In this document: in pieces, positions 14,041 through 29,404 of the stretch
Position numbering within the stretch: the first letter of the stretch is position 1
Layout: every line of letters starts with the position of its first letter
Assembly (NCBI RefSeq): GCF_900099895.1
Contig: NZ_FNDY01000009.1
Location: forward strand, 12,025-44,024
DNA length: 32,000 nt
Direction: 5' to 3'
Origin: Paenibacillus naphthalenovorans
Lineage (GTDB): Bacteria > Bacillota > Bacilli > Paenibacillales > NBRC-103111
The notes under the pieces: model-generated
What the model was told of the DNA's origin: nothing
Databases searched by the model: none
The model's input: the letters and a program-made list of their open reading frames with translations, nothing else
Position numbers and translations under genes: made by a program

Positions 14041-15261
14041 TCACTCATTTTTGCCAAATGCGCAAACCGGACGCAGTTTCACGCCTATGACACTGCCGAG
14101 CATGGCGCCAATCATCCACTCCCAGCCATGCAGGCTGAAGGAAGCAATTCCTCCGAAATAGGCTCCAATATTGCAGCCGAACGCGATCCGCGCCCCATAC
14201 CCCATCATAATACCGCCGATCAATAAACCTGCAATCATTCGCGGAGGAATGTTTCGGAGAAACCGATTTGGTTTGCCGCTTAGACCCAGGGCAAGCAAAG
14301 CGCCCAGCATGAGTCCAATATCCATTACGGACGTCACATCTTTGAATATACTACTGTTCAATGCCGCAGCATTGGCCGGGGTCTGCCAGTAGCCCCAATC
14401 CGTAACCTGAATACCCAGCGCCTGCGATATTTTGGCTCCCCACAAAGCAAAAGCCGATGTCACACCCCAGGGCTTGCCGGAAATATACAGCACGACGGCG
14501 TTTCCGACCGCAAGCACAACGCTCCCGATAATCAAAGGCCAAGGCCCTCTATAGACCGTCTTCCATCCGCTTTTCCAATCCAGGCGAAGCGATTCTACAT
14601 TTCCATTCCGGCGTCTCTCAATATAGATCGTTGCCATAAATACAAACGCAAGCAGCGCTAAATTCAGTAAAAAGCCTCCAAGGGCGCCGAATGTTTCAAT
14701 GAAAGACACAGGACCGATATTCGGAGTAGCCATCCACCATGTGAAATGAGCACTGCCTATGACCGATCCGGCCACAAAGCCGATTAAGGTCAAAATACCG
14801 CGGGAGTCTCCTCCGCCTATGTGGTAGAGTGTGCCTGATGCACATCCATCCCCCATTTGCATCCCTATGCCAAAGATAAAAGCGCCGATCAAAACGGACA
14901 TGCCAACAGGAGATACATATCCCGCAACCGGATTGTCAGTCACCCCCAACAGCAGCGGCAGGAACAAAAGATTTGCAATGAAAAACAAAATCATCTGGGC
15001 CCGGATTCCAAGTCCGCGACCCGAGACAAGAAAAATGCGAAATGAGCTTGTAAAACCATAGTGGGCATGATACAAAGCCAATCCCAACACGCCTGCAATT
15101 AAATATAATGAAGCCTGCTTATAGGAAACCGTACTGCCAAGAAATACGAATCCAAGCGCGAACAGCATCAAGGCAATCATCGTGATCCGACGATTCACGC
15201 CTGGTTTTTCTATCTTGCCAGCTGGATTAAGGTTTATAATATTTGCTTCTGACGTACTCAT
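14041..15261 (-). CDS. YeeE/YedE family sulfur-compound (thiosulfate-type) transporter
   Basis: A 406-aa polytopic protein with duplicated halves. Each half carries the family's conserved Cys loop (MQMGDGCASGT and RIAFGCNIGA). Confidence 0.85.
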   Translation of the reverse strand: MSTSEANIINLNPAGKIEKPGVNRRITMIALMLFALGFVFLGSTVSYKQASLYLIAGVLGLALYHAHYGFTSSFRIFLVSGRGLGIRAQMILFFIANLLFLPLLLGVTDNPVAGYVSPVGMSVLIGAFIFGIGMQMGDGCASGTLYHIGGGDSRGILTLIGFVAGSVIGSAHFTWWMATPNIGPVSFIETFGALGGFLLNLALLAFVFMATIYIERRRNGNVESLRLDWKSGWKTVYRGPWPLIIGSVVLAVGNAVVLYISGKPWGVTSAFALWGAKISQALGIQVTDWGYWQTPANAAALNSSIFKDVTSVMDIGLMLGALLALGLSGKPNRFLRNIPPRMIAGLLIGGIMMGYGARIAFGCNIGAYFGGIASFSLHGWEWMIGAMLGSVIGVKLRPVCAFGKNE

Positions 15262-15379: not shown

Positions 15380-15423
15380 AAAAAAGCTCAAGCTCCTCAT
15401 CCAAGAAGTGCTTAAGCTTTTTT
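15380..15423 (-). terminator. Bidirectional-looking intrinsic terminator ending the fmd/ami transcription unit
   Basis: AAAAAA-GCTCAAGC-16 nt loop-GCTTAAGC-TTTTTT. The 8-bp stem has one mismatch, with an A-tract on one side and a T-tract on the other. Confidence 0.65.
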
Positions 15424-15553
15424 ATGCTCGTCTTTTAAGAAAAACCCGGCTGCCTTCCCTTATCTAAACTGCATTGGGAGAGAGGGGCATGGGTTCCAGC
15501 CGCTAAGCCGCTTACAGATCACGACCCTCGGTTCGAGCCGCACACTGGCCACT

Positions 15554-15677
15554 GCGCTGAAAATCAACCTTACAAGTGGCCATTTTACTTTGCTGCTGGC
15601 TGTTACACTGAAATTCAACTTATCAGCCGACGATTTTACTTTTTCGCTCTCTGCTGCGCTGATTTTCAACTTTACAG
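15554..15677. repeat. Degenerate tandem repeat, 51-nt period, about 2.4 copies
   Basis: The cores are GCGCTGAAAATCAACCTTACAAG (15554), CACTGAAATTCAACTTATCAG (15606) and GCGCTGATTTTCAACTTTACAG (15656). The CTG positions are 15557, 15608 and 15659. A second shared block, ATTTTACTTT, occurs at about 15582 and 15633. Confidence 0.7.
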
Positions 15678-15681
15678 CACG

Positions 15682-15984
15682 TTAATGTCCCGCCATCCAG
15701 GGACGGTTTGCTGTGTGATGATGGCCTCCTTGGCGATGCGGGGAATGATTGTGGCTGTGTCCATGGTGATGAGCGGCCTGTTCCCGCCTGACCACCTTCG
15801 GTACTGCGCTTTGTTCCACACGGCGGCGCAGCGCATAAGGCGTCAGAATAACACCGGGCGGCGTATACATCCGATTGGCTGGATTGTCGCAGGTGACACA
15901 AGGAATACTTTCCTTGACGCTGCTCATGCTCATCCACTGTACGAACGGTCCACAGTTTTGACATACAAACTCATATTGCGGCAT
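15682..15984 (-). CDS. fmdB: FmdB-family zinc-ribbon protein with a His-rich C-terminal tail
   Basis: MPQYEFVCQNCGPF...IPCVTCDNP gives a CxxC...CxxC zinc ribbon typical of the FmdB family. The tail reads AAHHHGHSHNHSPHRQGGHHH. The gene lies downstream of the formamidase gene, as in fmdA-fmdB clusters. Confidence 0.75.
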   Translation of the reverse strand: MPQYEFVCQNCGPFVQWMSMSSVKESIPCVTCDNPANRMYTPPGVILTPYALRRRVEQSAVPKVVRREQAAHHHGHSHNHSPHRQGGHHHTANRPWMAGH

Positions 15985-16089
15985 ATCGTCATCTCCTCTT
16001 CAGCCTGTTCATCGGTGGAGCCAAGGGGCTACCCATCGGATGGTGCCCCGCGCATTCACGATTGGTTTTGCTTTCCTCCTACAACCTTA

Positions 16090-17271
16090 CTAACTGGGGA
16101 GAATATCCCTGTCAAAGATGGAGGTCGGTATCCAAAGGGTGCAGCAGGCATTCGGAACATCGACGATACCGCTGATCCGGCCTTCAACCGGGGCCGTACT
16201 GAGCAGCATGTAAGCTTGTTCGCCAGTTAAGCCCATTGTCGTTTTCAGATAGTCGATAGCGTTCAAGCACGCTCGGCGGTACGCGATGTGGGCGTCAAGG
16301 TAATGCTGCTCCCCCGTTGTCTCATGGACGGAAATGCCCTCAAATACGAGAAACTCCGAGTAATGAGGATCAACCGGCCCAGGCTTAAATACGGGATTTT
16401 CGATGATATTGTATTTGGCCATCCCTCCTTTGATGAGATCGACATGGAGATCCACCCAACCGGCCATTTCGATGCCGCCGCAGAAGGAGATCTCACCATC
16501 CCCTTGTGAAAAATGAAGATCGCCTAATGAAAGCTTGGCACCGTCAACGAAGACGGGGAAATAAATTCGCGTGCCCTTGGACAGATTTTTAATGTCACAG
16601 TTGCCGCCATGCTCCCGAGGCGGAACCGTACGCGCCGCTTCCCGGGCAATCCGGTTGAATTTCTGCCCCTTCAGCGAGCCGAGTACAGCGCTATCCGGTG
16701 AAGGCAGGTTAGCTAATCCGGGCACTCGGTCAGGATTCTTAGCAACAAGCTCCTTTTCCCGTTTGTTCCATTTATCCAGCAAGGCATGGGAAGGGGCGGT
16801 TCCGATTAATCCGGGATGTAAAATTCCGGCAAACTTAACGCCCGGTATATGGCGGGAGGTAGCGTAAATCCCGTGGAAATCCCATATCGATTTTGCCGCA
16901 TCAGGGTAATGATCCGTCAGAAACCCGCCGCCGTTTTGCTTGGCAAAAATGCCGTTAAATCCCCATTGCGACTCCGCAAAGGTACCTATATCCAGAATGT
17001 CCACAACAAGCAAATCTCCCGGCTCCGCACCGTTGACCCAGACCGGTCCGCTTAACACGTGTACGCGATGCAAATTCACATCCCGAATATCAGACGGATC
17101 GTCGTTGTTCTGAATTTGACCATCCGTCCAGTCTTTGCACTCCATACGAAATTCCGTTCCCGGATTGACTGACACGGTGGCCGGGATATCGGGATGCCAG
17201 CGGTTATGCCCGGGAGTCTCCTGCTCCTCCATCGGTTTGTTTAAATCTACACGAAACAATACATCAGCCAT
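16090..17271 (-). CDS. fmdA: Formamidase / acetamidase (FmdA_AmdA family)
   Basis: A 393-aa protein. The N-terminus ...PGHNRWHPDIPA...ECKDWTDGQI...VHVLSGPVWVNGAEPGDLLVVDILDIG is characteristic of the acetamidase/formamidase family. TAAGGAGGAG Shine-Dalgarno. Confidence 0.85.
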   Translation of the reverse strand: MADVLFRVDLNKPMEEQETPGHNRWHPDIPATVSVNPGTEFRMECKDWTDGQIQNNDDPSDIRDVNLHRVHVLSGPVWVNGAEPGDLLVVDILDIGTFAESQWGFNGIFAKQNGGGFLTDHYPDAAKSIWDFHGIYATSRHIPGVKFAGILHPGLIGTAPSHALLDKWNKREKELVAKNPDRVPGLANLPSPDSAVLGSLKGQKFNRIAREAARTVPPREHGGNCDIKNLSKGTRIYFPVFVDGAKLSLGDLHFSQGDGEISFCGGIEMAGWVDLHVDLIKGGMAKYNIIENPVFKPGPVDPHYSEFLVFEGISVHETTGEQHYLDAHIAYRRACLNAIDYLKTTMGLTGEQAYMLLSTAPVEGRISGIVDVPNACCTLWIPTSIFDRDILPS

Positions 17272-17324
17272 TCAAATCTCCTCCTTAACGAATGAAGTCA
17301 ATGAAAGGGAACGATACCATGATC

Positions 17325-17364
17325 AAAAAGGGGCAGGTCGAAATGAAAAGTTCGTCTGCCCCTT
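17325..17364 (-). terminator. Strong intrinsic terminator between amiE and fmdA
   Basis: The minus strand reads AAGGGGCAG-ACGAA-loop-TTCG-(AC)-CTGCCCCTT followed by TTTTTGA. The outer stem has 9 perfect bp, plus an inner 4-bp stem. Confidence 0.65.
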
Positions 17365-17445
17365 ATATCGATCAACTCATACAAGCCCCTCTTGCCTTTC
17401 CGACATTCTCGCCCCTCAAACTATATATAGAGAATGACGGAGATA

Positions 17446-18492
17446 TTATTTCTGTCCAATCAAATTTGTTTTTTCGTTAGGAAGTCCTTCGATTGGACAT
17501 TCTTCGGTTCCAATGGTTGATCTAGTGATCGCTTCTACTTGTTCACGGGCTTTTACAGGGTCGGATACCCATGTTTTATAGAATTCGAACGGGCATTCCG
17601 CAACCCCTTTGTCTCCTTCTCCGGAATGAATGATCCCTGTATATCCTCTGTGCAGAAGTTTAAAGAGATGGTTTTGAGATTGAGCCGTTTTCCTGAAATC
17701 CCGGATCTGGGACATCGAGATCTCTGCATATTGAATACCATTTTCTTCGGTACCGCACTCTCCCAGCGTACGGCCGTCAAAGCCAATGATCGATGAATGG
17801 CCAAAATAAGAATATACTCCATCAAATCCGGAAGCATTGGCTACGGCTACATAGGTGTTGTTAGCCCAAGCCATGGACTTGGCGATCAAAATTTGTTGTT
17901 CTTTGGCAGGATACATATATCCCTGGCATCTTACGATGAGTTCCGCTCCCTTTACGGCACAATCACGCCAAATTTCCGGATAATTTCCATCATCGCAAAC
18001 AATTAAACTGACCTTAAGCCCTTTAGGTCCCTCGCTTACATAGGTCTTATCTCCAGGGTACCAGCCCTCGATCGGAGTCCACGGTATAATTTTTCTATAC
18101 TTTTGGACAATCTCTCCCTTGTTGTTCATAAGAATAAGTGTATTGTACGGTCTTTTATTCGGATGCTCTTCGTGTCTTTCTCCTGTTAATGAGAACACTC
18201 CCCATACATTGGCTTTTCTGCAAGCTTCCGCAAAGATTGCCGTTTCTTCGCCGGGAATCATCGATGCCGTTTCATACATTTCTTTCTCGTCATACATAAT
18301 GCCATGCGTGCTGTATTCCGGAAAAATGACAAGATCCATACCGGGCAAGCCCTGCTTCATACCAACGATCATTTCTGCGATTTTCTTGCAATTCTCCAAT
18401 ACCTCAGATCGGGTATGCAAACGCGGCATTTTGTAATTCACAACCGCTACCCCTACTGTGTCATGACTGCTGGAAATATCCCCATGTCTCAT
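17446..18492 (-). CDS. amiE: Aliphatic amidase (nitrilase superfamily)
   Basis: A 348-aa protein. [24 protein letters not shown]..., FPEYS (Glu), KIIPW (Lys) and [14 protein letters not shown] (Cys) match AmiE of Pseudomonas, Helicobacter and Geobacillus. Confidence 0.9.
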
Positions 18493-18572
18493 ACTGAAAA
18501 ACCCCTCTCATCGTTTGAAATTTAATTGGGACCTGCTTTAAGGAACAGCTCATGCATGCAAAAACTTTTTTT

Positions 18573-20921
18573 TCATTTCAAAAGCTCTTCAAAGGAAAAG
18601 CTGTCCCGTTCAAGTTTTGTTCGGGTAAGAAGCTGAACGGCATTCCATGCTTCATCAAGCGACTGTACCCACACCACATGAATCGTCGGAGGAACCTCGA
18701 TATGCTTGTTGGCAAGCGGGGCAAGTATCGTGCGAATGCCTCCATGCTTGGCGGTCAGCATTTTCCGACCAAAAAAGGCGCATTCTCCGACCATTCCCGC
18801 GACATTCAAACTTCCGCATACCGCTATATCCTCGGGTATGAAAACCCCGTGTTTAGCCGACAACGCCGATAGGGCCATGGCCAGGGTAAAGTCCTCCGTC
18901 CTTTCGCCGGCTGCCGCACCCTCGGTTTCAAAATAATACCGGCCCGATAAGCAATAACGATTCAAGGCTGCTTCTATAGGCAGCACATTCCATTCCCCAG
19001 ACTCCATTTGAGGTACTCTGATTTCGACTTCTGCAGCGGGAACAACGGCAGTCCAGATCTGTATGATTTGACCGGCGGTTTCCTTATAATTCGACAGGAC
19101 TTTGATCTTGCCCGGGGATGGCTGACGAAGCAAAGGCTTTAATCCGTTTCGTTCACGCCATACCCTCTGTTCTTCAATAGAGCGGGAAAAATGTCCGGCT
19201 CTCTTCACATGTTCCGCAAGCACAAGCGCTGCTCCTGACTGTACGGCCAAATCCCCGGCCGAACGGATCCGCCCGCCCAATTCACGGAATCGGGTGGACA
19301 AACGGTCGGGACATTCCGCTATTCGCCTCGCACACTCGATCACGGCCTCGACGGCCTCCCGTGTAAAATGCGGAATTTTGCCATCCCTTCGAATTTCCTG
19401 GGCGACAAACAAAGCCAGCTTATACCGGTTCTCCTCCGTATCCGACATCGTCTCATTCATATAGACCTCGTACCCATAACCGCGGATTCTTGACCGCAAT
19501 GCGGGATGGATCTTGTCGACATCAGGCACATTTCCGGCAATCACCATCACAAAATCACTGGGAACGGGCTCCGTGCGAACCATGGTTCCGCTGGAACCGG
19601 GGGAACGCCCGGTAATGGCCAGCTTCTTTTCCTGAAACGCCGTAAGCAAAGCCTGCTGCGATTCTAACGAGAGCATCGCGACCTCATCGATGAACAGCAC
19701 ACCTTTATGGGCAAGATGAATGGCTCCAGGCTCAACCAAGTGATGGGGCTTGGATTCCAAGCCGCCGGATTGATACGGGTCATGGCGAACATCTCCAAGC
19801 AGCGCTCCTGCATGCAGTCCCGTTGCATCGATAAATGGCGCTTTAACCTTGCCGGAGTTATTCACCAGATAGTTGGGAATTTGCTCCGAAGGCTTAGCCT
19901 TCAGCGATTTTGCAAACCAAACGATCATGACCGTCAGAATCAGGCTGCCCATGATGTAGACGGGATTTTCCCTGGTATAAGCATAAAAGGCACCCACAAT
20001 CAACGTAACGGCCCCGGCAAAGCCTAATATCCAGCGCAGAGAAGAAACATTCGTCCGAAATTCCCGTTCCCGCTGCCTGACTACCGCTTCTCCATGTCCC
20101 GCCGACAAGACCTTTACCTTGGGCATGTTGTTCGCTTTTCCCCTTGCCTCCACGATGATGTCCTCTAAGTTGGAGGCCGGCAAAAGCTCAGCCATCGCCT
20201 GCCCCAGCATACTTTTACCCGTTCCGGGTTCGCCGATGAGCAAAACCGACCGTTTTTGCCGTGCCGCCAGCCGAATGATGGCTACGGCTTCATCCTGGCC
20301 AACCACTTGATCGATCAAACGGCTGGCAACGGGGAGATCGGCAGTTGTCTTGAAATCCATGGCGGGTACAGGGAACGGTTCCTCTTCGAGTAAATGAGGA
20401 GAGAGATAGCGTTCGAACAAGGCTTTTACTTTCGGCGAAGCATCCCTGCCCATGGGTTTGACCAACGGCAGCAGCCGCTTGCGCAAAACAGGATTTTGCA
20501 ACAAAGGGATTAACGTCATGGCGGCCGTCTGGCGGACTTCAGCCGAATCATCGTGAAAGGCGCTTTCCCAAAAACGCCACACCCGATCAAAATCTGCCTC
20601 CATAGCCGAGACCATTCCCTTTGCCGTTGCCTCTCTTACATAAAGGTGTTTATCCGCCGCAAGCCGCATCCAGATCCGGATCACTTCTTCCGCTTCATCA
20701 TCCAGAAAACGGCCGATTTCCCTCCCCACAACATAACGAAGCACCCAGCGCGGATCATTGGCAAAATGGCGCAGCGTTTGGTACAATTGGCCCCGTTTTT
20801 CCTGATAACGGATGAATGATGAAATGGTATGTTCCAGCTGCGCGACTTTTCGTGCTTTAGCAAATCGGTCCATGACAGCAGCAAACAGATGATTGACGAA
20901 ATCGCCCACGGGTAAAACCAC
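18573..20921 (-). CDS. LonB-architecture AAA+ protein with a HEAT-like N-terminal domain, a TM hairpin inserted in the ATPase, and a Lon-protease-like C-domain lacking an obvious catalytic Ser motif
   Basis: Walker A is LLIGEPGTGKS. Two hydrophobic helices follow (WILGFAGAVTLIVGAFYAY and IMGSLILTVMIVWFA), then Walker B VLFIDEV, as in archaeal-type LonB. The N-terminal ~190 aa have HEAT-like VRxxAA repeats. The C-domain aligns with the Lon S16 domain. The start is uncertain: GTG 20921, or GTG 20909 after AAGGTGG. Confidence 0.7.
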   Translation of the reverse strand: MVLPVGDFVNHLFAAVMDRFAKARKVAQLEHTISSFIRYQEKRGQLYQTLRHFANDPRWVLRYVVGREIGRFLDDEAEEVIRIWMRLAADKHLYVREATAKGMVSAMEADFDRVWRFWESAFHDDSAEVRQTAAMTLIPLLQNPVLRKRLLPLVKPMGRDASPKVKALFERYLSPHLLEEEPFPVPAMDFKTTADLPVASRLIDQVVGQDEAVAIIRLAARQKRSVLLIGEPGTGKSMLGQAMAELLPASNLEDIIVEARGKANNMPKVKVLSAGHGEAVVRQREREFRTNVSSLRWILGFAGAVTLIVGAFYAYTRENPVYIMGSLILTVMIVWFAKSLKAKPSEQIPNYLVNNSGKVKAPFIDATGLHAGALLGDVRHDPYQSGGLESKPHHLVEPGAIHLAHKGVLFIDEVAMLSLESQQALLTAFQEKKLAITGRSPGSSGTMVRTEPVPSDFVMVIAGNVPDVDKIHPALRSRIRGYGYEVYMNETMSDTEENRYKLALFVAQEIRRDGKIPHFTREAVEAVIECARRIAECPDRLSTRFRELGGRIRSAGDLAVQSGAALVLAEHVKRAGHFSRSIEEQRVWRERNGLKPLLRQPSPGKIKVLSNYKETAGQIIQIWTAVVPAAEVEIRVPQMESGEWNVLPIEAALNRYCLSGRYYFETEGAAAGERTEDFTLAMALSALSAKHGVFIPEDIAVCGSLNVAGMVGECAFFGRKMLTAKHGGIRTILAPLANKHIEVPPTIHVVWVQSLDEAWNAVQLLTRTKLERDSFSFEELLK

Positions 20922-20922
20922 C

Positions 20923-21114
20923 TTAATGGCAGGGAATAAACATTAACGCATGCCGCAATTCATGGAGCGCATCATGGACGGGAGCATATCCGGATAAGAG
21001 TGCGGTATAAAGCACCATCCCGGCCAAGAAGGCAACGGCGGTCAATTGTGCCGGAAGGGACAAAAATACCTTTTCGAAGGCATGCTTCTTTTCATGCGTG
21101 TAGCTCTGTGACAT
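20923..21114 (-). CDS. cbtB: CbtB-like small membrane protein (putative cobalt/metal transporter subunit)
   Basis: A 63-aa protein with a single TM helix. The C-terminus VHDALHELRHALMFIPCH matches the CbtB family ending (H..AHD.RH...FPCH) as I recall it. AAAGGAGGGG Shine-Dalgarno. Confidence 0.55.
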   Translation of the reverse strand: MSQSYTHEKKHAFEKVFLSLPAQLTAVAFLAGMVLYTALLSGYAPVHDALHELRHALMFIPCH

Positions 21115-21613
21115 GGGAATCCCCTCCTTTGGATAAACGTTGGGCTTTCCATATGGCGGATAAGCCTACACCCGCTGCCATCCCGATGGCAATCGTCGCC
21201 AGCAGAAAAATCATGGTTTTGATTTTGACCGACATCGGAGGATGAAACGCCTCCACTCCCACGGTTGTTTTCTTTTCAGCCAGCACGGAACCATTCGCCG
21301 GATGGATCGCCTGAACGGTTATTTCATGTTCGGTGCCGTCGAAAAATTGCATCCCGAATTTATAGCTGCCATCATTCGAGCGATTTTGGAGAGACAGGAT
21401 GTGCGCCCCATCTTCGAGTTTGACGGCCTGAAAACGAACTTCAACGGGGTCACTGCCGATATGATCAAAGGTGCCTTCCAAATAAAAGAGTTGACCGACC
21501 CGGGCATGATGCTCGCTCGCATGTGTCTCTTGGGATTCATGGGCGAGGACGGTTGCAGACATGAGCATCATCAATAAAACGGAACTCAAACCGAACCAAT
21601 GCCTACGCCGCAT
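21092..21613 (-). CDS. Signal-peptide protein with a His-rich N-terminal segment, a beta-rich domain and a C-terminal TM anchor
   Basis: The preferred start is ATG 21613, after GAAGGAGGGG. MRRRHWFGLSSVLLMMLMSATVLA is a signal peptide, followed by HESQETHASEHHA. The C-terminal anchor is MIFLLATIAIGMAAGVGLSAIW. The architecture matches the upstream neighbour. Confidence 0.5.
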   Translation of the reverse strand: MRRRHWFGLSSVLLMMLMSATVLAHESQETHASEHHARVGQLFYLEGTFDHIGSDPVEVRFQAVKLEDGAHILSLQNRSNDGSYKFGMQFFDGTEHEITVQAIHPANGSVLAEKKTTVGVEAFHPPMSVKIKTMIFLLATIAIGMAAGVGLSAIWKAQRLSKGGDSHVTELHA

Positions 21614-22118
21614 GGATACCCCTCCTTCTTCTCGATAGTCCAAAACCGGCGAGCAATCCGAAGAATGCTAACATCGCCATGAAGATCAAAGCATTTTGAA
21701 CCTCTTTGGGATTTTCCTCAATGGTGACGGCAAATTGACGACTGCCTTCAGGATGACCGTTCTCATCGAACCATTCGACCGATAAAGGATACTCCCCGCG
21801 AATCGGAAACATATATTGAAACGACGCCTTTCCATCCCGGATGGCCACCGTAGAATCGATTAATTCCGTCCCTTCCACCCAAGGAAAATCGGTTGAGACA
21901 AACTTCTTCTCCGGACTCCGCAGGCGAATATGCGCTGAACCGTCCCGAATGGCCGGTATGCTCAGTTCTACTGTGGCATTATCCAAATCCGGACGAACCG
22001 CTCCCGCCGGTCCATTTTTCACTTCTACATTGACTTCCTGCTCTGCAAATGCCGATGATAAGGAAATCATTCCAACCGCCAGCACCGCCAGGCATCCCAC
22101 GATTAAGCCTTTTTTCAT
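21603..22118 (-). CDS. Signal-peptide protein with a beta-rich extracytoplasmic domain and a C-terminal TM anchor
   Basis: MKKGLIVGCLAVLAVGMISLSSAFA is a signal peptide. The C-terminal anchor is ALIFMAMLAFFGLLAGFGLS followed by RRRR. I recognise no family. It is similar in layout to the 21092-21613 product. Confidence 0.5.
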   Translation of the reverse strand: MKKGLIVGCLAVLAVGMISLSSAFAEQEVNVEVKNGPAGAVRPDLDNATVELSIPAIRDGSAHIRLRSPEKKFVSTDFPWVEGTELIDSTVAIRDGKASFQYMFPIRGEYPLSVEWFDENGHPEGSRQFAVTIEENPKEVQNALIFMAMLAFFGLLAGFGLSRRRRGIHAA

Positions 22119-22232
22119 CCGCCTCAGCCCCTATAAGTCATGATTTGAGTGACATCATTAGAAAGAGAACTAGCCCATTACAGTGGCGGAACCGTTCAAC
22201 ATTTGCGCCTGATCCCCCGTTATGCAGCTTTC

Positions 22233-24338
22233 TCATTCAACACGCTCGCAAGCGATCTCCCGGAGTCTGGCTGCAGCTTGGTCGGCGCCCACAGGCTGCT
22301 CGCAGGCAAACCCCCGGCAAAGATAAACGGTCGTTCGCCCGTTTTGCAGCCGGTACTCCTTTAACCAGGGGATGGCCTCCGCCATGCGCTCGCCCTCCGC
22401 GTCCGCGGGCTTTGCAATCCACACGGCCCGGGGCAAAAACAGCGAACGCACCTCTGCCAGCAGCCTCTCTTGCTCCGGATCTTCCCGCTCGCCGACCACC
22501 ACGACCTCCTGGGATGGCCCGAGAGCGATATCCCAAGCCGATAAGAGAAAGGTGTGAGCTGCGGGGAACCGTTCCACCTCCCCGGCCAAGGCCTTCAATT
22601 GCGCATCCGCCCTCTCTTCCCACCGCGTATTCCCGGTCATCCGGGCGAGCCACAACATATCCATTGCAAAGACAGCGTTGCCGGACGGCATCATCCCGTC
22701 ATGACTTACCTTCGGCCGGGCCCAAAGAGACTCCGCGTCCGAACCGGTCAGAAAACAACCGCCGCTCTCGTCATCCCAGAAAAGCCCCCAGACATCTTCC
22801 GCCAGCTCCTCCGCCTTTACAACCCATTCCACCTCCCCGGACGCCTGATAAAGCTCAAGAAGCCCCCAGATATAAAAGGCATAGTCGTCCAAATAGCCGG
22901 GAATCCCTGCATCGCCGTCCCGATACCGGGCCAACAGTCGACCGTCGTTCCGACGCATCGCCTTCCACAGCCACGAGGCCGCACGGCAAGCCGCCGACAG
23001 ATACCGGGGATCGCCCAACACCCGGTACCCCCGCGAAAAGGCGGCGATCATCAATCCGTTCCAGGCCGTGAGGATTTTGTCGTCCTTGTGCGGGCGCTCC
23101 CGCCCCTCGCGTGCCTCCCACAGCTTCCGCCGCGCTTGTTCCATCCGCTCCTCCAGGACTTCCGGCGCCAGCCCGAATTCCCGCGCCACCGCCTCCGAAT
23201 CCGTGTCGATCGTGTGAAGCACCGAAGTGCCGCGCTCAAAATTCCCCTCCTCGGTCACGCCGTAATACCGGCAGGCCATCCGGCCCGCCTCCTCTCCCAG
23301 CACGCGGCAGATATCATCCGGCGTCCAAACATAAAACTGGCCCTCCTTGCCCTCTGTATCGGCATCCTCCGCCGAATAAAACCCTCCTTCCGGGCTCGTC
23401 ATGTCCCGCAGCACATAGCTGAAAATCTCCTGTGCTACCTGAGCCCAACGGGACGTTCCTGCCGCCTGATACCCTTCCAAATAGGCCAGCGCCAATAGGG
23501 CGTTATCATAGAGCATCTTCTCAAAATGCGGGATCAGCCACAGCTTGTCGGTGGCGTAACGGGAAAATCCGTAGCCCAGATGGTCATAAATGCCTCCCCG
23601 CCACATTCCCCGCAGATTGCCCTCCACCATGTTCAATGCATCCTCACGCCCGGTTCTGGCGTAAAACCGGAGCAGAAACATCAACTCGTGGGGACGCGGA
23701 AATTTCGGCGCCCCGCCGAACCCGCCGTAAGTCTCGTCATACCTAGAACGAACGTAATCGAAGGCCAAAGCCATCGCCCCGGTGTTTACCTCTCCGCGAG
23801 CCGCCGGATGCATCCCCGTGGTCAGCTTGCGCACAACGTCACGACCGGTCTGCCGCAGGCGATCCCGATCGGTCTTCCACAGGTCGGCCGTCCTCTGCAG
23901 CAGATCCATTAACCCATGCCGCCCGTGCCGGCTCTGTTTCGGAAAATAGGTCCCGCTGAAAAAAGGTTCCTTCTCCGGGGTCATGAACACGGTCAAAGGC
24001 CAGCCTCCCTGCCCGGTCATCCCCTGGCATACTCTCATATAGAGATGGTCCACGTCCGGCCGTTCCTCCCGGTCCACTTTGATCGACACGAAATGGCGGT
24101 TGAGCAGCTCCGCCACCTCCGGGTCTTCGAAGGACTCCCGCTCCATCACGTGACACCAGTGGCACGTACTGTACCCGATGCTGAGGAAAACGGGCCGATC
24201 CTCATCCTTCGCCTTCTCAAAGGCCTCTTCCCCCCATGGATACCAATCTACGGGGTTATGCGCATGCTGCAGCAGATACGGGCTTTTTTCACGAATCAAG
24301 GGGTTCGTGTACCGGTGTTTGCGGCTGTCTTGAGCCAT
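22233..24338 (-). CDS. YyaL/SPATA20-type thioredoxin-domain protein (COG1331, DUF255 plus a six-hairpin domain)
   Basis: [58 protein letters not shown] is the hallmark N-terminus of this family. GGGAGGTGG Shine-Dalgarno. Confidence 0.85.
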
Positions 24339-24451
24339 CTTGGTCTGCCACCTCCCTGAACGCTTTTCTTATATTCCGGCACCCGCTTGCCAAAAGAGCC
24401 ATGTCTTCCACCAAAGCGAAGACGGAGCTTATCGATCCGGACAGCGGTCCT

Positions 24452-25456
24452 TCATTCGCTGGACACAACGCATTGGGCAAAGCCCTGCATAAACTTATCC
24501 CGGTCCAGATTGCGCCCGATGACCACGTACTCGCTATGCCGGGGTTCTTCCGGCTCCCGGTTCTCTTCCCGGCGCAGAGACGTCAGCATACGCACACTCT
24601 GGAAGACCAGCCGCTCCGAATATCCCCGGGCCCGGAAGATGCCTTTTGTACGATAGACATCCTCGCCGTGTTCCAGAAGAACCCCGTTGAACCATTCCAT
24701 GAACCGGTTCATATCGACGGGACGGTCCGTCCGCAGAACAAAAGACGCCACTTCATCGTCGTGCTCGTGTTCCACATCGTCCAAAAACGCGGGATCGACC
24801 TCCAGCTTGGCGGCCAACTCGAAGGCGCTGACCCCGAGAATCTTGTCGAGTTCGATATTCGCGAATTGAGTGTGATACAGTCTGGCCATCGGATTAAGGG
24901 CTCGGATCCGCTGTTCCACGCGCTCTAATTGGGGTTTCGGCACCAGATCGGTCTTGTTCAGCAGGATGATGTCGGCGAAGGCCGACTGTTCCCGGGCCTC
25001 GACGCTGTCTTCCAAATTGCGCTCCAGGTTGACTGCGTCGGCTACCGTAATAAACGAGTCCAGTTGAAACCGGGACTTGATCTCATCGACAATAAAGAAC
25101 GCAGAAGCGACCGGGGCGGGGTCCGCCAGACCCGTCGTTTCGATCAACACGGCATCGAGTTCGGAGCGCCGGGCCAGATCCGTCAGGGTCCGGACCAGGT
25201 CCTCCCGAACGGTACAACACAGACAACCGTTATTAAATTCCACCAGCTCCTCGTTATCCTCGGTGACCACCAGCTGTCCATCTATGCTGATCTCACCGAA
25301 CTCATTGACGATAACCGCCACTTTGTACCCGTGCCGACCATGCAGGATATGATTGAGAAGGGTTGTTTTTCCCGACCCCAGGAATCCCGTCACTACGGTA
25401 ACCGGAATCCGCTCCGGTGAATATAGCTGTTGTACCATTATCGCCACCGCCTCCAT
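24452..25456 (-). CDS. CobW/COG0523 (G3E family) GTPase metallochaperone
   Basis: The P-loop is VVTGFLGSGKTTLLNHIL. The metal-binding motif is NGCLCCTVREDL. An acidic/His stretch reads VEHEHDDEV. An alternative start is ATG 25438. Confidence 0.85.
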   Translation of the reverse strand: MEAVAIMVQQLYSPERIPVTVVTGFLGSGKTTLLNHILHGRHGYKVAVIVNEFGEISIDGQLVVTEDNEELVEFNNGCLCCTVREDLVRTLTDLARRSELDAVLIETTGLADPAPVASAFFIVDEIKSRFQLDSFITVADAVNLERNLEDSVEAREQSAFADIILLNKTDLVPKPQLERVEQRIRALNPMARLYHTQFANIELDKILGVSAFELAAKLEVDPAFLDDVEHEHDDEVASFVLRTDRPVDMNRFMEWFNGVLLEHGEDVYRTKGIFRARGYSERLVFQSVRMLTSLRREENREPEEPRHSEYVVIGRNLDRDKFMQGFAQCVVSSE

Positions 25457-25590
25457 TAGCTCATTAACTTGCCTCTATCCGCCGCCACGACGCTTCCCCA
25501 AGCGGAATGGAGGATAAGCGCCGGACACGCGGGCGGCATAGGTTAGCCGCCTGCGTATCCAGCCGTTTCGGTTTACATCTCCCTGTGGGG

Positions 25591-27240
25591 CTAAGGGGTA
25601 GGAACCACCGTCTTGGCCATGGCCGCAATGCCCTGCTGCAGAATCTCCCTGCGGGTTGCCGGCGGAAGGACGTCGCCCTGCAATTGATCGTAAGGCACGG
25701 CAACCCAACTGTCGTCGCCCCACAGGCGCTCCCCCGCCATATCTTTCATCTGGCTGGATCGCTCCGACAGCAGAACGCCCAAGTCCAGCAGCCACGAGTG
25801 ATTAAGCAGCTTTTCCTCCCTTGCCGCATTGGCGTACCGCTTGCGGGACTCCCAGAACAGACGCAGGTCTGTCTTCGCAAGACCTGGCAGAAGGATGTCA
25901 AGATAGCTGGTCAAGTGATCGAAAAATTCATGATGAAAAGTCCGCAATGTGGCTTCATCCGAGTCGAGGAGGTGCTTGTTCATCGTATCCGCCAGCTTTC
26001 GGTCCACGGACTCATTCCATACGTATCGCGGCGCGTGAATATGGACCTCGGCGTAATCCGTCTTGAACCCTTCCACTAGCCCCGACCATTCTTCCGTATG
26101 GTCAAGCCAGTCGGATAAGATCTGACGCCACTTGTTAAGCGGCTCACCCGGCAGTACCTGCACCCCGGGATGGGTCAGCTTGGCTAGATTGTAAAGCGTA
26201 AAATTCCGGGCCTTCGAACTGACGGTTTCGTGCGGCGCCCCCGTGAATCCGCACGGACGCAGAGCCCTGAATAAAGTCCGCCCCGAGTCGTGAGCGGCAA
26301 AGCGTACGAAGGAGTCGGCCAGAAACTTGTTGGTCACCTGCAGCCGCAGCCCTTGCCGCACCGCCGGCACGCCCAAGTCTGTATACCGGCTGATTCGCTG
26401 CCAGACGTGCTCCATATTGGCTACGAAGAAGCCTCCGGTGAAAGGGTTGGCGTACAAGTCTCCCCACACTTGCGTGACGCCTTTATTCTTGTCATCGTCA
26501 ATCATGCAGTCGAGCTCGTTAAGGGTGGCGAATAGGCTCGCACCCCGGTACTTCTCGTCGTCGGCGCTGCACGGCATCACGCCAACGCCAATGACAGGCA
26601 CACGCCGGCCGAAGTGAACCGTAGAGAGGTGCCGTGCCAAATCTACAGCGATTCCGCTGCCGGTGCCGCCTCCCATGGAAAAGCAGACCAGCACCATCGA
26701 CGGCAACCGCGTCTGGTCCACACTCTGGACGAAGTCCTTCAGCTCCCGCTTAAGAAGCTGCGGACCATCATAGTAGTTTTTACCGTAAATGGCTTTGGCC
26801 AATGCCCTCGGAAAATGCTCGCCGGGCTTAGGAATCTCGATGTTATCCGGAAGCCAGGGTTCGTAGTCGGGATTCCAATCATACCGGAGAAATTCGCGCT
26901 TGAGAAATTCAGGATAGCGCGCCAGCGAGCCGAATAATTCCTCTTTGCTTGGTACCTCGAGCGAAACCGTGCGGATACGGGCGCGATCCCGCGGAATGTT
27001 GCGCTCCTCCAGGCGTTCCAGAAAGCCTTGGGCATAGTCCCGGGCCCGAACCATGTCCTGCTCGCCGATATCGATGGCCAGCGCCGAAAAACGGGCGCGG
27101 GGATCCTCCAGAAGATCCTCGACCTCCCCCTCGCGCAGCATCGCGTCCACAAAACCTACCCCCGTTCGACCGATTCCCACGACGTGTATGCTGTGAGGGG
27201 ACTGCATACCGGAAGCACTGTGATACATTGAAAAACTCAT
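25591..27240 (-). CDS. Tubulin/FtsZ-signature protein, paralog B (549 aa)
   Basis: An exact GGGTGSG signature is encoded at 26653-26673. An N-terminal glycine loop HVVGIGRTGVGFV precedes it. KPGEHFPRALAKAIYG is T3-like. VIGVGVMPCSADDEKYRGASLFATLNELDCM parallels FtsZ VGVVT.PF.FEG..R. The protein aligns with the 27687-29192 product. The functional call is an inference. Confidence 0.6.
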   Translation of the reverse strand: MSFSMYHSASGMQSPHSIHVVGIGRTGVGFVDAMLREGEVEDLLEDPRARFSALAIDIGEQDMVRARDYAQGFLERLEERNIPRDRARIRTVSLEVPSKEELFGSLARYPEFLKREFLRYDWNPDYEPWLPDNIEIPKPGEHFPRALAKAIYGKNYYDGPQLLKRELKDFVQSVDQTRLPSMVLVCFSMGGGTGSGIAVDLARHLSTVHFGRRVPVIGVGVMPCSADDEKYRGASLFATLNELDCMIDDDKNKGVTQVWGDLYANPFTGGFFVANMEHVWQRISRYTDLGVPAVRQGLRLQVTNKFLADSFVRFAAHDSGRTLFRALRPCGFTGAPHETVSSKARNFTLYNLAKLTHPGVQVLPGEPLNKWRQILSDWLDHTEEWSGLVEGFKTDYAEVHIHAPRYVWNESVDRKLADTMNKHLLDSDEATLRTFHHEFFDHLTSYLDILLPGLAKTDLRLFWESRKRYANAAREEKLLNHSWLLDLGVLLSERSSQMKDMAGERLWGDDSWVAVPYDQLQGDVLPPATRREILQQGIAAMAKTVVPTP

Positions 27241-27243
27241 CGT

Positions 27244-27288
27244 TTAACCTCTCCTTTCGTTCCTGTGGTACAGCGTTGAGAAACTCAT
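27244..27288 (-). CDS. Candidate 14-codon upstream ORF that duplicates the 5' end of the following gene
   Basis: ATGAGTTTCTCAACGCTGTACCACAGG... encodes MSFSTLYHRNERRG, with AGGAG 10 nt upstream. The stop TAA lies 3 nt before the main ATG. The main gene begins ATGAGTTTTTCAATGTATCACAG (MSFSMYH). Confidence 0.3.
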   Translation of the reverse strand: MSFSTLYHRNERRG

Positions 27289-27337
27289 GATTTCGCATCT
27301 CCTGTCCATTGGCGAACGGGCGGCAGCTTTCGTTGTC

Positions 27338-27673
27338 TCAGCACCACGCGCTCCTGGAGGTAAAGCCCGTATCCTCATCGAGAAACCCGAGGTCGTGAAG
27401 GATATGGGCAGCGGAGGTCGCACGGTCATCCACGATGTACACCCGGTAATCCTCAACAAACAGGCCCGGATCTCTTGAAATGACGCCTTCCTCGATTAAC
27501 CTCACGCCTTCCTCCAGGTGGCTGCGCTTCACAGCGGATGTCCACAGGGGGGTTCGAATGTAAATTTGTTCATCGTCCACGCCCGTCACCTGCAGCGTCT
27601 TCCTCCCCGCGACGGTGGGAACCTGGGCTCCCTTGCCGTACTTTTGCTTCACCAACGACCAGTTTAGCGGCAT
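27338..27673 (-). CDS. 111-aa orphan protein between the two tubulin-like genes
   Basis: The track ORF 27338-27892 overlaps the upstream gene. The real start is probably ATG 27673, 8 nt after TAAGGAGG, whose TAA is the upstream stop. The translation is MPLNWSLVKQKYGKGAQVPTVAGRKTLQVTGVDDEQIYIRT... I recognise no family. Confidence 0.6.
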   Translation of the reverse strand: MPLNWSLVKQKYGKGAQVPTVAGRKTLQVTGVDDEQIYIRTPLWTSAVKRSHLEEGVRLIEEGVISRDPGLFVEDYRVYIVDDRATSAAHILHDLGFLDEDTGFTSRSAWC

Positions 27674-27686
27674 GGCAGATACCTCC

Positions 27687-29192
27687 TTACAAGATGGCCT
27701 GGGGCAATTCTTCTCCCCGAATGGCTTCGTAGGGCACGACAATCCAGCAGGCGCAGCCCCAAAGACACTCACCGGCCATGCCTTCAAACCGCAGCGCCGG
27801 CTCGCACAGGAGCACCCCCAGGTCCAATAGCCAGGAATGAACCATGAGCTTATCTGTCCATGACAGCTGATCGTAGTCTTTCCGGGCGGCATGGAAGACC
27901 TGCAGATCCGTTTTCCTGACCCTCGGAAGCACGTACTGAACGAACGTGCCGCCCTTGCTCTTCGACCGCACCATTTCCGGCGGGTTCACAGGCGCGAAGA
28001 CTTCGTTTAGCTTTCCGGCGACAGCGGCCAGTTCACTATCCAGATTCGCACCCTCCGGGGCAGCCACCCGCATTTCCAGAAAATCCGCCTTGTAACTATC
28101 CTTCAAGCCCAGTTGAGAGGCCGATACCCCTTTTTCCGGATCTCCATATCCAAGCACGTGTATCCAGCGCTCGCCATATTGCGTGCGTGCTGCCGCGTGT
28201 TGGGTTGGCGGCGCCCCGATCCAGTTGAGCAGACGGAGCGTTTCCCAGAGGTCGGTACCCTTATTCCGGGTAAGGAAACTGGCGATTTCCCGGTCTACCC
28301 GCTGGTGGGTTGCCTGAAGATTCCCGGTGCTTTCCCAAGCCGGCTGCTGCGGCACCATAATAAACCCGGCGGTAAAGGGGTTTCGATACAGGTCGCCCCA
28401 AACCTGAATAACCCCTTCGTTCTTATCCTGATCCAGCATGCAATCCAGCTCATTGAGCGCCGGAAAGAGCTGGCTGCCGCGAACTTCTTCGGGATCGCCT
28501 TCGCACGGCGCAATGCCTACACCCAGCACAAGGCTGCGGCGTCCGAACCGGACGTTGGACAAATGGCGGGCAAGATCCACTACGATACCGCTGCCTGTAC
28601 CGCCGCCCAGTCCAAATACAACGCACACGACAGATTTACTGTCGGCGGCCTCCACGCTCTGCGCAAAGAGGTTGAGTTCTTCCAGCAGGGGCCGTGACTC
28701 ATTGTAATAGCCATGTCCATAAATAGCCTTGGCCAATGCCCGCGGAACGTGCTCTCCGGGCTTGGGCATCTCGATGTCCGCCGGAAGCCAGGGTTCATAG
28801 TTGGGATTCCAGTAATACCGTGGATATTCCAGCTTCAGATACTCCCGATAGCGGCGCAGCATGGCAAAAAGTTCGTCCCGGGAGGGAACCTGCAGGGCGC
28901 ATGTCCGCACCTGCACCTGGTCTTGCGGCAGCTTGCCGGCCAGTTCCCGGATGGGCGCCAGGTTCTCGTCACTTGTGTCGACAGCCAGAGCCGTAAAGCG
29001 TACACGACTGTCTTCAAGCAAGTCGTCGACGCCATCATGGAGCATCTCCCCGATGACGTCGGCGCCGGCCTTACCCAGGCCGATGACATGTACGGCTACG
29101 GGAGTAGAGTCCTCCTTGGCAATCCGGTGAAAGCCGCGCTTGAGCGCATCGAATCGCCGCTTCTCTACTTGAGAGATTTGTCGTTTTTCCAT
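27687..29192 (-). CDS. Tubulin/FtsZ-signature protein, paralog A (501 aa)
   Basis: An exact GGGTGSG signature is encoded at 28587-28607. An N-terminal glycine loop HVIGLGKAGADVIGEML precedes it. KPGEHVPRALAKAIYG is T3-like. VLGVGIAPCEGDPEEVRGSQLFPALNELDCM parallels the FtsZ S5/T5/H5 region. AGGAGGAG Shine-Dalgarno. First gene after the sigma-54 promoter. Confidence 0.6.
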   Translation of the reverse strand: MEKRQISQVEKRRFDALKRGFHRIAKEDSTPVAVHVIGLGKAGADVIGEMLHDGVDDLLEDSRVRFTALAVDTSDENLAPIRELAGKLPQDQVQVRTCALQVPSRDELFAMLRRYREYLKLEYPRYYWNPNYEPWLPADIEMPKPGEHVPRALAKAIYGHGYYNESRPLLEELNLFAQSVEAADSKSVVCVVFGLGGGTGSGIVVDLARHLSNVRFGRRSLVLGVGIAPCEGDPEEVRGSQLFPALNELDCMLDQDKNEGVIQVWGDLYRNPFTAGFIMVPQQPAWESTGNLQATHQRVDREIASFLTRNKGTDLWETLRLLNWIGAPPTQHAAARTQYGERWIHVLGYGDPEKGVSASQLGLKDSYKADFLEMRVAAPEGANLDSELAAVAGKLNEVFAPVNPPEMVRSKSKGGTFVQYVLPRVRKTDLQVFHAARKDYDQLSWTDKLMVHSWLLDLGVLLCEPALRFEGMAGECLWGCACWIVVPYEAIRGEELPQAIL

Positions 29193-29388
29193 GGTATCTC
29201 CTCCTGAATCTTTCGTTTAAAATTTGAGTTCATCCGATCGAATAAACACCAGCCCCCGCAACCTCCATGCATCACCCCTTTTCAAGTTCGTGTTCGGGTT
29301 CTGCCGCGTCTACTGGATCATAGTATGGTCCCCCTCCTCCGGCATCGACAATGAAAGGCCGGTATTTAGGCTTTCAGTATATTTATAT

Positions 29389-29404
29389 AGCAATTTTCAT
29401 GCCA
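29389..29404 (-). promoter_or_regulatory. Sigma-54 (-24/-12) promoter
   Basis: The minus strand reads TGGCATGAAAATTGCT. This has the GG and GC elements at the canonical spacing (consensus TGGCAC-N5-TTGCW). It lies about 197 nt upstream of ATG 29192 and faces away from a sigma-54 activator gene. Confidence 0.7.

Follow-up and report, generated by a model that had tools for sequence, protein, structure and literature searches.

A probable acetonitrile hydratase-type nitrile-degradation operon with tubulin-like subunits in Paenibacillus naphthalenovorans

Acetonitrile hydratase (ANHase) of Rhodococcus jostii RHA1 is a cobalt-type enzyme acting on small aliphatic nitriles and is encoded in a unique gene order of alpha subunit, AnhE and beta subunit, in which AnhE is a cobalt metallochaperone (PMC3511329; PMC7193024). 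The enzyme contains one Co, two Cu and one Zn (PMC3766881). RHA1 uses acetonitrile, acrylonitrile, propionitrile and butyronitrile (PMC6941271) and has a single plasmid-borne amidase (Table 2, PMC6941271). Here we describe a string of twelve genes on the minus strand of a 32,000-nt stretch of DNA from Paenibacillus naphthalenovorans (the window, by which we mean the whole stretch), which begins with two large tubulin-like proteins, A and B, encoded on either side of a 111-amino acid (aa) orphan. We consider it likely that this string is a catabolic operon leading from nitrile to amide to acid, with an ANHase-type enzyme acting first and with its own cobalt-supply genes.

Classical Co- and Fe-type nitrile hydratase clusters combine an enzyme bearing a CxLCSC metal claw with P14K/NhlE or COG0523 P47K/Nha3 activators, the cobalt transporter NhlF, an amidase and AmiC-like NhlC/NhhC proteins; in R. 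rhodochrous J1, nhhC and nhlC encode AmiC-like regulators and the classical nitrile hydratase clusters are induced by amides. The window resembles such clusters in pathway logic and accessory set, comprising amidase, cobalt transporter, COG0523 and AmiC-type amide-responsive regulation, and its enzyme also has a Cys-rich motif in one of two subunits. However, the two enzymes are unrelated in sequence and fold, with tubulin-fold subunits of 56 and 62 kDa in the window and alpha and beta subunits of ~23 kDa in the classical enzyme. No window protein matched a classical nitrile hydratase family in Pfam or NCBIfam, and the C-(S/T)-L-C-S-C claw is absent, A having EC-LWG-C-A-C. The amiEBCRS operon of Pseudomonas aeruginosa likewise combines AmiE, an AmiC-type sensor and an AAA+ ATPase, AmiB, but lacks hydratase and cobalt genes; the window has a sigma-54 enhancer-binding protein (EBP) fusion in place of the AmiC/AmiR antiterminator and a LonB-like protein in place of the CbbQ-like AAA+.

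The closest described counterpart of the window is found on the RHA1 plasmid pRHL2, where an AmiC-like gene, an aliphatic amidase, a 514-aa "tubulin-like" protein, a 99-aa hypothetical protein, a 568-aa protein, a helix-turn-helix (HTH) protein and a NiCoT transporter follow one another. The three central open reading frames (ORFs; ABH00363-65, pRHL2 163335-166915) have the same large-small-large order as the window and align with it over essentially their full length by BLASTP: A (27687-29192, minus strand; 501 aa, 56.0 kDa) with the 514-aa protein at 50% identity (E 5e-169), the 111-aa protein (27338-27673, minus strand) with the 99-aa protein at 39% (E 3e-29), and B (25591-27240, minus strand; 549 aa, 62.3 kDa) with the 568-aa protein at 52% (E 0). 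The adjacent aliphatic amidase, the AmiC-like gene and a dedicated Co/Ni transporter are further points in common. The RHA1 ORFs have computed masses of 55.8, 11.09 and 63.0 kDa, and AnhE reportedly has a predicted mass of 11.1 kDa, in agreement with the middle of these values. The anh genes of RHA1 are said to lie on pRHL2, with which the single plasmid-borne amidase of this strain agrees, and ANHase reportedly has no significant identity to characterised nitrile hydratases. Based on these homologies, the window genes are probably anhA-like, anhE-like and anhB-like.

This assignment places the triplet, as homologues of the ANHase subunits and their chaperone, at the first catabolic enzyme of the pathway and not among its accessories. 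The earlier note on this DNA, made from the sequence without database searches, had treated the tubulin-like pair as an unexplained GTPase set, knew of no described system of this composition and suggested a machine for enzyme organisation rather than simple catabolism. These three points find no support, as the two tubulin-like proteins and the orphan of 111 aa are probably homologues of AnhA, AnhB and AnhE, the pair corresponding to the catalytic subunits of RHA1 ANHase, in which case the core of the system is already known from RHA1. Its broader proposal of an amide-linked catabolic module under sigma-54/AmiC-type regulation with a dedicated metal-handling set is borne out, and its remark that COG0523 genes accompany nitrile hydratase and amidase clusters was the correct lead.

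The three window proteins match the NCBI entries ALS20542-44 exactly. A and B are paralogues (~36% identity), and homologues of the small protein, which is presumably a cobalt metallochaperone, are almost all 108 aa long and belong to no Pfam family. The RHA1 AnhA-like protein (L090:9920-11464) has at its N-terminus a His-rich stretch, MPDHGHDHGHNHD, which the Paenibacillus protein lacks. Homologues of A number more than 1000 matches in cyanobacteria and proteobacteria at 52-64% identity, all without a name, and the family is small, with 171 clusters at 50% identity among 1.84 billion representatives. A tblastn search of plasmids matched 12 from Rhodococcus; two other full-length matches are on plasmids of Brucella anthropi and Agrobacterium, and two Shinella plasmids match in part. 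Natronocella acetinitrilica, an acetonitrile degrader, also belongs to the family, and there the ANHase-type cluster lies directly beside transposase genes (L087, 1-2809); this location and the plasmid-borne copies in Rhodococcus, Brucella and Agrobacterium agree with horizontal spread.

Relatives, sought in one genome per species, were present in 212 species, from which 80 loci were retrieved; 48 of these have full flanks, and neighbourhood frequencies refer to these 48 unless 80 is given as the denominator. Neighbouring genes were labelled homology-first (some "small111" labels in actinobacterial loci are probably spurious and were not used), and the neighbours were assigned to Pfam families. 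The loci come from Cyanobacteria, alpha-, beta- and gammaproteobacteria (including sponge and lichen symbionts), Actinomycetota and Alicyclobacillaceae, and the order A, ~108-aa protein, B is essentially universal among all 80. Near the triplet are an amidase in 38 of 48 loci (AmiE in 30, FmdA in nine, amidase-signature enzymes in seven), a Co/Ni transporter (CbtAB, CbiMN, NicO or similar) also in 38, a thiol/redox protein (redoxin, YyaL, DUF1636 or 2Fe-2S thioredoxin-like) in 37, a COG0523 gene in 34, an AmiC-type sensor in 27 and an AAA+ protein (CbbQ with VWA, or HEAT-LonB) in 19. Comparative genomics, which the earlier note had proposed as a check, thus shows that the triplet recurs with amidase, Co/Ni transporter and COG0523 beyond this strain.

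The partner amidase is drawn from three unrelated classes, so that the link is to amide chemistry rather than to any single amidase. Classical nitrile hydratase clusters have the same accessory set, and on context alone the triplet would therefore fill the nitrile hydratase slot; the frequency of both Co/Ni transporters and amidases supports cobalt-dependent nitrile hydration by the window enzyme. The maturation set appears to vary by lineage, since RHA1 and most actinobacterial loci lack COG0523. In most actinobacterial loci a small HTH-like gene, "unk166", follows anhB in place of COG0523, and both genes occur in L046 and L065. In Pseudomonas corrugata (L089) the order is anhA-anhE-cbtBA-anhB-cobW-amiE-cbbQ-VWA-amiC-amiR. 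Six gammaproteobacterial loci (L031, L032, L034, L037, L040 and L041) encode three paralogues, since a further AnhB-like gene of the tubulin fold follows one for a 2Fe-2S thioredoxin-like ferredoxin, downstream of cobW, cbtB and redoxin genes.

Several observations weigh against the catabolic reading of the string. The putative identification of ABH00363-65 as anhA, anhE and anhB draws on gene order, sizes, organism, secondary literature and the reported plasmid location and dissimilarity to known nitrile hydratases, and public databases name these entries only "tubulin-like" or "hypothetical", with no anh label. The Paenibacillus assignment is by homology, and 50% identity leaves the substrate range unfixed. 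In 10 of the 48 full-flank loci no amidase was found within 10 kb, and the sensors and transporters in the loci are of amide/urea type, which would also fit a purely amide-directed role. Classical Co-type nitrile hydratase alpha subunits (VCTLCSCYPW) are encoded by separate genes within 10 kb in 4 of 80 loci (L050:7803-8513, minus; L061:19714-20364, plus; L065:11663-12268, minus; L067:16820-17434, minus), three of which also carry an amidase-signature amidase, indicating that the two enzymes are not simply interchangeable. Within the window, a terminator-like hairpin after amiE means that fmdA and fmdB may form a separate transcript.

The amide-type context bears most directly on the alternative that A, the small protein, B and COG0523 make up a Co- or Ni-dependent enzyme with some other amide-related chemistry, such as an alternative amidohydrolase, a urease-like enzyme or a cyanide or isonitrile hydratase, and that the RHA1 activity is not representative of the family. 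The AmiC/AmiR sensors, urea/amide-type ABC transporters and MIP channels of the loci would point to amides, not nitriles, being sensed or imported; an FmdA partner, present in 12 of 80 loci, would suit conversion of HCN or isonitrile to formamide; and identity to the RHA1 enzyme is limited to 45-50%. Amide induction through AmiC-like regulators is, however, also a feature of classical nitrile hydratase clusters, the catalytic-subunit motifs are shared by the RHA1, Paenibacillus and cyanobacterial members, and nitrile hydration is the only biochemical datum for the family. We therefore regard a different chemistry as unlikely, though it is the alternative that we take most seriously.

The AlphaFold2 (AF2) model of A (predicted local distance difference test score, pLDDT, 91; predicted template modelling score, pTM, 0.93) has a two-domain tubulin/FtsZ fold, an assignment that is confident at the level of the prediction. 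The top 50 PDB matches of this model in Foldseek are all CetZ, FtsZ or tubulin (best E 5.5e-13, probability 1.00), with ~400-500 aligned columns and template modelling scores of 0.44-0.62. Pfam Tubulin scores 34.8 bits for A and 35.4 bits for B against a cutoff of 33, and Tubulin_2 is also at or near its gathering score for both. The tubulin signature GGGTGSG (T4) is present in A (196-202) and in B, and the T1 loop reads GLGKAG (38-43) in A and GIGRTG in B. Across 75-78 aligned homologues, the GxGxxG T1 loop is kept and T4 is largely conserved, deviating in a few cyanobacterial A sequences; the blocks PCEGD, NELDCM and WGDLYxNPFT are also conserved. No equivalent of tubulin T7 could be assigned with confidence from sequence. 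The nearest sequence outgroup of the ANHase-type subunits is a set of ~880-aa Tubulin_2 proteins, and PDB sequence searches with A, B and the small protein returned no informative relatives. The AF2 model of the small protein (pLDDT 86.6) is a small beta-barrel with three helices, for which no PDB fold match was found.

Like CetZ, FtsZ, the tubulins and BtubA/B, the ANHase-type proteins have the two-domain fold, GGGTGSG, the GxGxxG T1 loop and a paralogous A/B pair. They differ in their reported catalysis rather than polymer dynamics, in large T1-T4 inserts, in a C-terminal Cys-cluster extension and in their catabolic context. The genomic contexts of FtsZl1 (vWA, kinases and OmpA) and of FtsZl2, which has no conserved context, are both unlike the ANHase-type loci; FtsZl2 was considered as the family of A and B and rejected, being proteobacterial only and without conserved context. 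The C-terminal motif of A, GMAGEC476-LWG-C480-A-C482-W (C-x3-C-x-C), is more than 90% conserved and absent from B. It resembles the C-x2-C-x-C cobalt claw of classical nitrile hydratase alpha subunits, and we propose C476, C480 and C482 as a candidate cobalt site. B has a conserved N-terminal motif of its own, S-x-YHSA-x-G-x-Q-x-PH-x-x-H.

Such a fold invites the explanation that the pair is a cytoskeletal or scaffolding GTPase polymer that organises, assembles or matures the amidases and is itself no catabolic enzyme. The genuine tubulin/FtsZ fold, GGGTGSG in both paralogues with T1 kept and T4 largely conserved in the family, an A/B heterodimer recalling alpha/beta-tubulin and BtubA/B, and AAA+ partners in two-fifths of the full-flank loci (19/48) would all suit such a role. 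However, published work on RHA1 presents the homologous proteins as the pair of subunits that make up a purified nitrile hydratase, and partner amidases of three unrelated classes argue for a substrate-product link over protein-specific assembly. A metalloenzyme is likewise favoured by the obligate genes for Co/Ni uptake and by the cluster of conserved Cys residues in A, and any polymerisation would come on top of catalysis. We consider a purely structural pair improbable, more so than an enzyme of other chemistry.

Databases already label these proteins "tubulin-like", so the fold itself is no discovery; the point of interest is its pairing with a known catalytic activity. A full-text literature search found no paper joining nitrile hydratase with tubulin-like proteins, the literature on tubulin-like proteins yielded nothing on amidase, CobW or cobalt, and the tubulin-superfamily surveys checked do not describe the ANHase family. 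Two points are new: that ANHase is here connected explicitly with the tubulin/FtsZ fold, and the Paenibacillus variant of the cluster with its sigma-54/AmiC-EBP control, COG0523, YyaL, CbtB with transmembrane (TM) proteins, and a probably protease-dead LonB.

The variant is organised behind a -24/-12 promoter, TGGCATgaaaaTTGCT, at 29389-29404 (minus strand), ~197 nt upstream of the anhA-like start codon. The site had been named in the earlier note and is the sole exact -24/-12 match within the window. A divergent gene on the plus strand, running from 29707 to beyond 32000 and thus off the window, encodes a fusion of an AmiC-like sensor domain, of the periplasmic-binding-protein type, with an AAA+ domain of the sigma-54 enhancer-binding kind that has a GESGTGKE Walker A motif and a GAFTGA loop, in agreement with the -24/-12 promoter. 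A full-length homologue of 920 aa lies beside the same genes in L003 and comprises Peripla_BP_5/6, Sigma54_activat and HTH_8; another is found in L058. With a -24 GG/-12 GC promoter and a cognate EBP nearby, the string is predicted to be a sigma-54-dependent operon. The 197-nt leader upstream of anhA was negative in a riboswitch search.

Twelve same-strand ORFs had been read between the promoter and the end of the string, and all were found there. Four junctions are tight, with overlaps of 11 and 23 nt and gaps of 1 and 13 nt, in line with the overlapping and closely spaced junctions described earlier, and no sigma-70-like and no second sigma-54 site was found in the gaps. A good Shine-Dalgarno sequence, attributed to every ORF, is strong for ten of the twelve and weak or absent for cobW and the lonB-like gene when each is taken from its first possible start. 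The two terminators proposed can be seen by eye, one as a hairpin in the amiE/fmdA gap (~17325-17370, minus strand; GGGGCAG...CTGCCCC then TTTTTG) and one as a hairpin with T-run after fmdB at the string end (~15380-15423, minus strand), but a simple terminator scan listed neither. GC content is 56-61% from anhA to yyaL, 49-53% in the TM/cbtB/lonB segment, 44% in amiE and 52-55% in fmdAB, and in the closest relatives, L003 and L058, amiE lies upstream of anhA, unlike in the window. The operon looks pieced together, by its GC mosaic and the position of amiE, from segments with different histories.

That mosaic, the gene order unlike L003 and L058 and the hairpin after amiE could also be read as the fortuitous adjacency, in this strain only, of independent units (anh block, cobalt/Lon block, amiE and fmdAB), a reading we give hardly any credence since the same functional classes recur around the triplet in at least five phyla, the junctions are tight or overlapping and free of the promoter types sought, and in L047 and L060 the anh genes again have the CbtB, TM and HEAT-LonB module next to them.

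Relative to the RHA1 anh cluster, the window adds COG0523, YyaL, CbtB and two TM proteins (for NiCoT), the protease-dead HEAT-LonB and FmdA/FmdB, and differs in its sigma-54 drive with an AmiC-EBP fusion. Pfam and NCBIfam back every family label of the earlier note, although the Zn_ribbon_8 score of FmdB is below cutoff. The COG0523/CobW-family G3E GTPase (24452-25456, minus strand; Pfam cobW 200 bits, CobW_C 78 bits) has both the cobW and CobW_C domains and a GCLCC sequence (CxCC motif). COG0523 comes after anhB in 34 of the 48 full-flank loci, with a median identity of 64.5%. It scores below all NCBIfam equivalog cutoffs (YjiA-type 225 against 361, ZigA 217 against 600, CobW 200 against 332); it looks like a distinct subfamily dedicated to the ANHase-type enzyme and is presumed to be a metal-insertion chaperone. 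The YyaL/DUF255 thioredoxin-domain protein (22233-24338, minus strand; Pfam Thioredox_DsbH 265 bits) occurs in 15 of 80 related loci.

Three overlapping genes (20923-22118, minus strand) form a putative cobalt-uptake module: two proteins with a signal peptide and a C-terminal TM segment, the first at 21603-22118 and the second, His-rich, at 21092-21613, followed by CbtB (20923-21114; Pfam CbtB 33 bits, TIGR02459). CbtB is again combined with a TM protein in L039, L047, L048 and L060, and CbtAB, CbiMN, NicO or HupE take its place in other loci. A CobN-like chelatase, suggested by the co-occurrence of CobW, CbtAB, DUF1636 and CbbQ/VWA, was considered and rejected, because the link to amidases and AmiC predominates and the counterpart in RHA1 is a hydratase.

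The next gene (18573-20921, minus strand) encodes a HEAT-repeat and archaeal-type LonB-like AAA+ protein, a marginal match to lon_rel (TIGR00764, 522 bits; cutoff 517). It resembles archaeal membrane LonB in its AAA+ module, which is intact (E 3e-132 to Thermococcus LonB 3k1j), in a hydrophobic insertion in the ATPase domain, here two probably membrane-spanning stretches, and in its LonB LID domain and Lon_C-like C-terminus. It differs in an N-terminal HEAT-repeat extension and in a degenerate protease domain, which has Phe for the catalytic Ser (EDFTLA against GD(S)ASI in the 3k1j alignment) and so lacks the Ser-Lys dyad, and is probably not a protease. Its homologues adjoin anh genes only in L047 and L060; most other lineages have CbbQ and VWA instead. 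The first possible start is a GTG 1 nt past the cbtB stop without a Shine-Dalgarno sequence, and the gene is either translationally coupled to cbtB or starts further downstream.

The aliphatic amidase AmiE of the nitrilase superfamily (17446-18492, minus strand; NF009802, 721 bits) has homologues in 45 of 80 loci with a median identity of 79%. The formamidase/acetamidase FmdA (16090-17271, minus strand; Pfam FmdA_AmdA 619 bits) is followed by an FmdB-type zinc ribbon with a His-rich tail (15682-15984, minus strand; Zn_ribbon_8 31.9 bits, below the cutoff of 34.4), and an FmdB-like ORF adjoins fmdA in at least six loci (L022, L026, L044, L063, L070 and L071). Directly downstream of the terminator-like hairpin after fmdB, a YeeE/Sulf_transp membrane gene (14041-15261, minus strand) and an MFS transporter gene (12385-13629, minus strand) are found in none of the related loci and so lie outside the system. 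Elsewhere in the window, an Rfam match to domains D1-D4 of a group II intron (RF02001; 5163-5331, minus strand; 95 bits, E 2e-18) lies in a region without a convincing long protein ORF.

We predict that the two tubulin-fold paralogues are the structural subunits of a non-classical cobalt-dependent nitrile hydratase, with the 111-aa protein as its cobalt chaperone, and that this enzyme would hydrate small aliphatic nitriles to amides, an activity known from the RHA1 literature and with a substrate range presumed for Paenibacillus. AmiE, and FmdA with FmdB, would then hydrolyse the amides to acid and ammonia. Cobalt supply and insertion and the upkeep of thiol redox state may fall to COG0523, YyaL and CbtB with its two membrane proteins, and the probably membrane-anchored and protease-dead LonB-like AAA+ may act as an accessory remodelling ATPase. 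Transcription would proceed from the sigma-54 promoter, driven by the divergent AmiC-like EBP, for which the signal is probably the amide product, as it is where nitrile hydratase clusters are induced by amides. The homology, the fold, the order of the genes and the conservation of their neighbourhood were established here, and nitrile hydratase activity, cobalt content and the role of AnhE are carried over from the literature on the RHA1 enzyme.

A more tentative extension is that, within the tubulin/FtsZ superfamily, the ANHase-type hydratases may be the first members to be catalytic, with conserved nucleotide pockets that still bind GTP, and that GTP might control assembly of the heterodimer or of an oligomer, possibly a filament, or gate cobalt insertion. 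COG0523, the thioredoxin-like proteins (YyaL, redoxin or 2Fe-2S thioredoxin-like) and an AAA+ remodeller, protease-dead LonB here and CbbQ/VWA elsewhere, could on this suggestion constitute a pathway, so far undescribed, that matures or reactivates a cobalt centre with Cys ligands. We regard this proposal as possible but doubtful.

The comparison joins two literatures without mutual citation, in that a characterised cobalt nitrile hydratase would be a paralogous tubulin/FtsZ-fold pair with signature loops intact. This raises testable questions as to whether GTP is bound or used, whether the proteins polymerise and where the cobalt site is located. Biocatalysis would gain a second nitrile hydratase scaffold, unrelated to the classical one, along with a defined set of genes that are candidates for its maturation (AnhE, COG0523, YyaL/redoxin and AAA+). 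For the family itself, a probable enzymatic role would replace the labels "tubulin-like" and "hypothetical" in ~200 species, among cyanobacteria, sponge and lichen symbionts, actinomycetes, Rhodococcus megaplasmids and Paenibacillus, implying that nitrile catabolism may be spread more widely than classical nitrile hydratase genes indicate.

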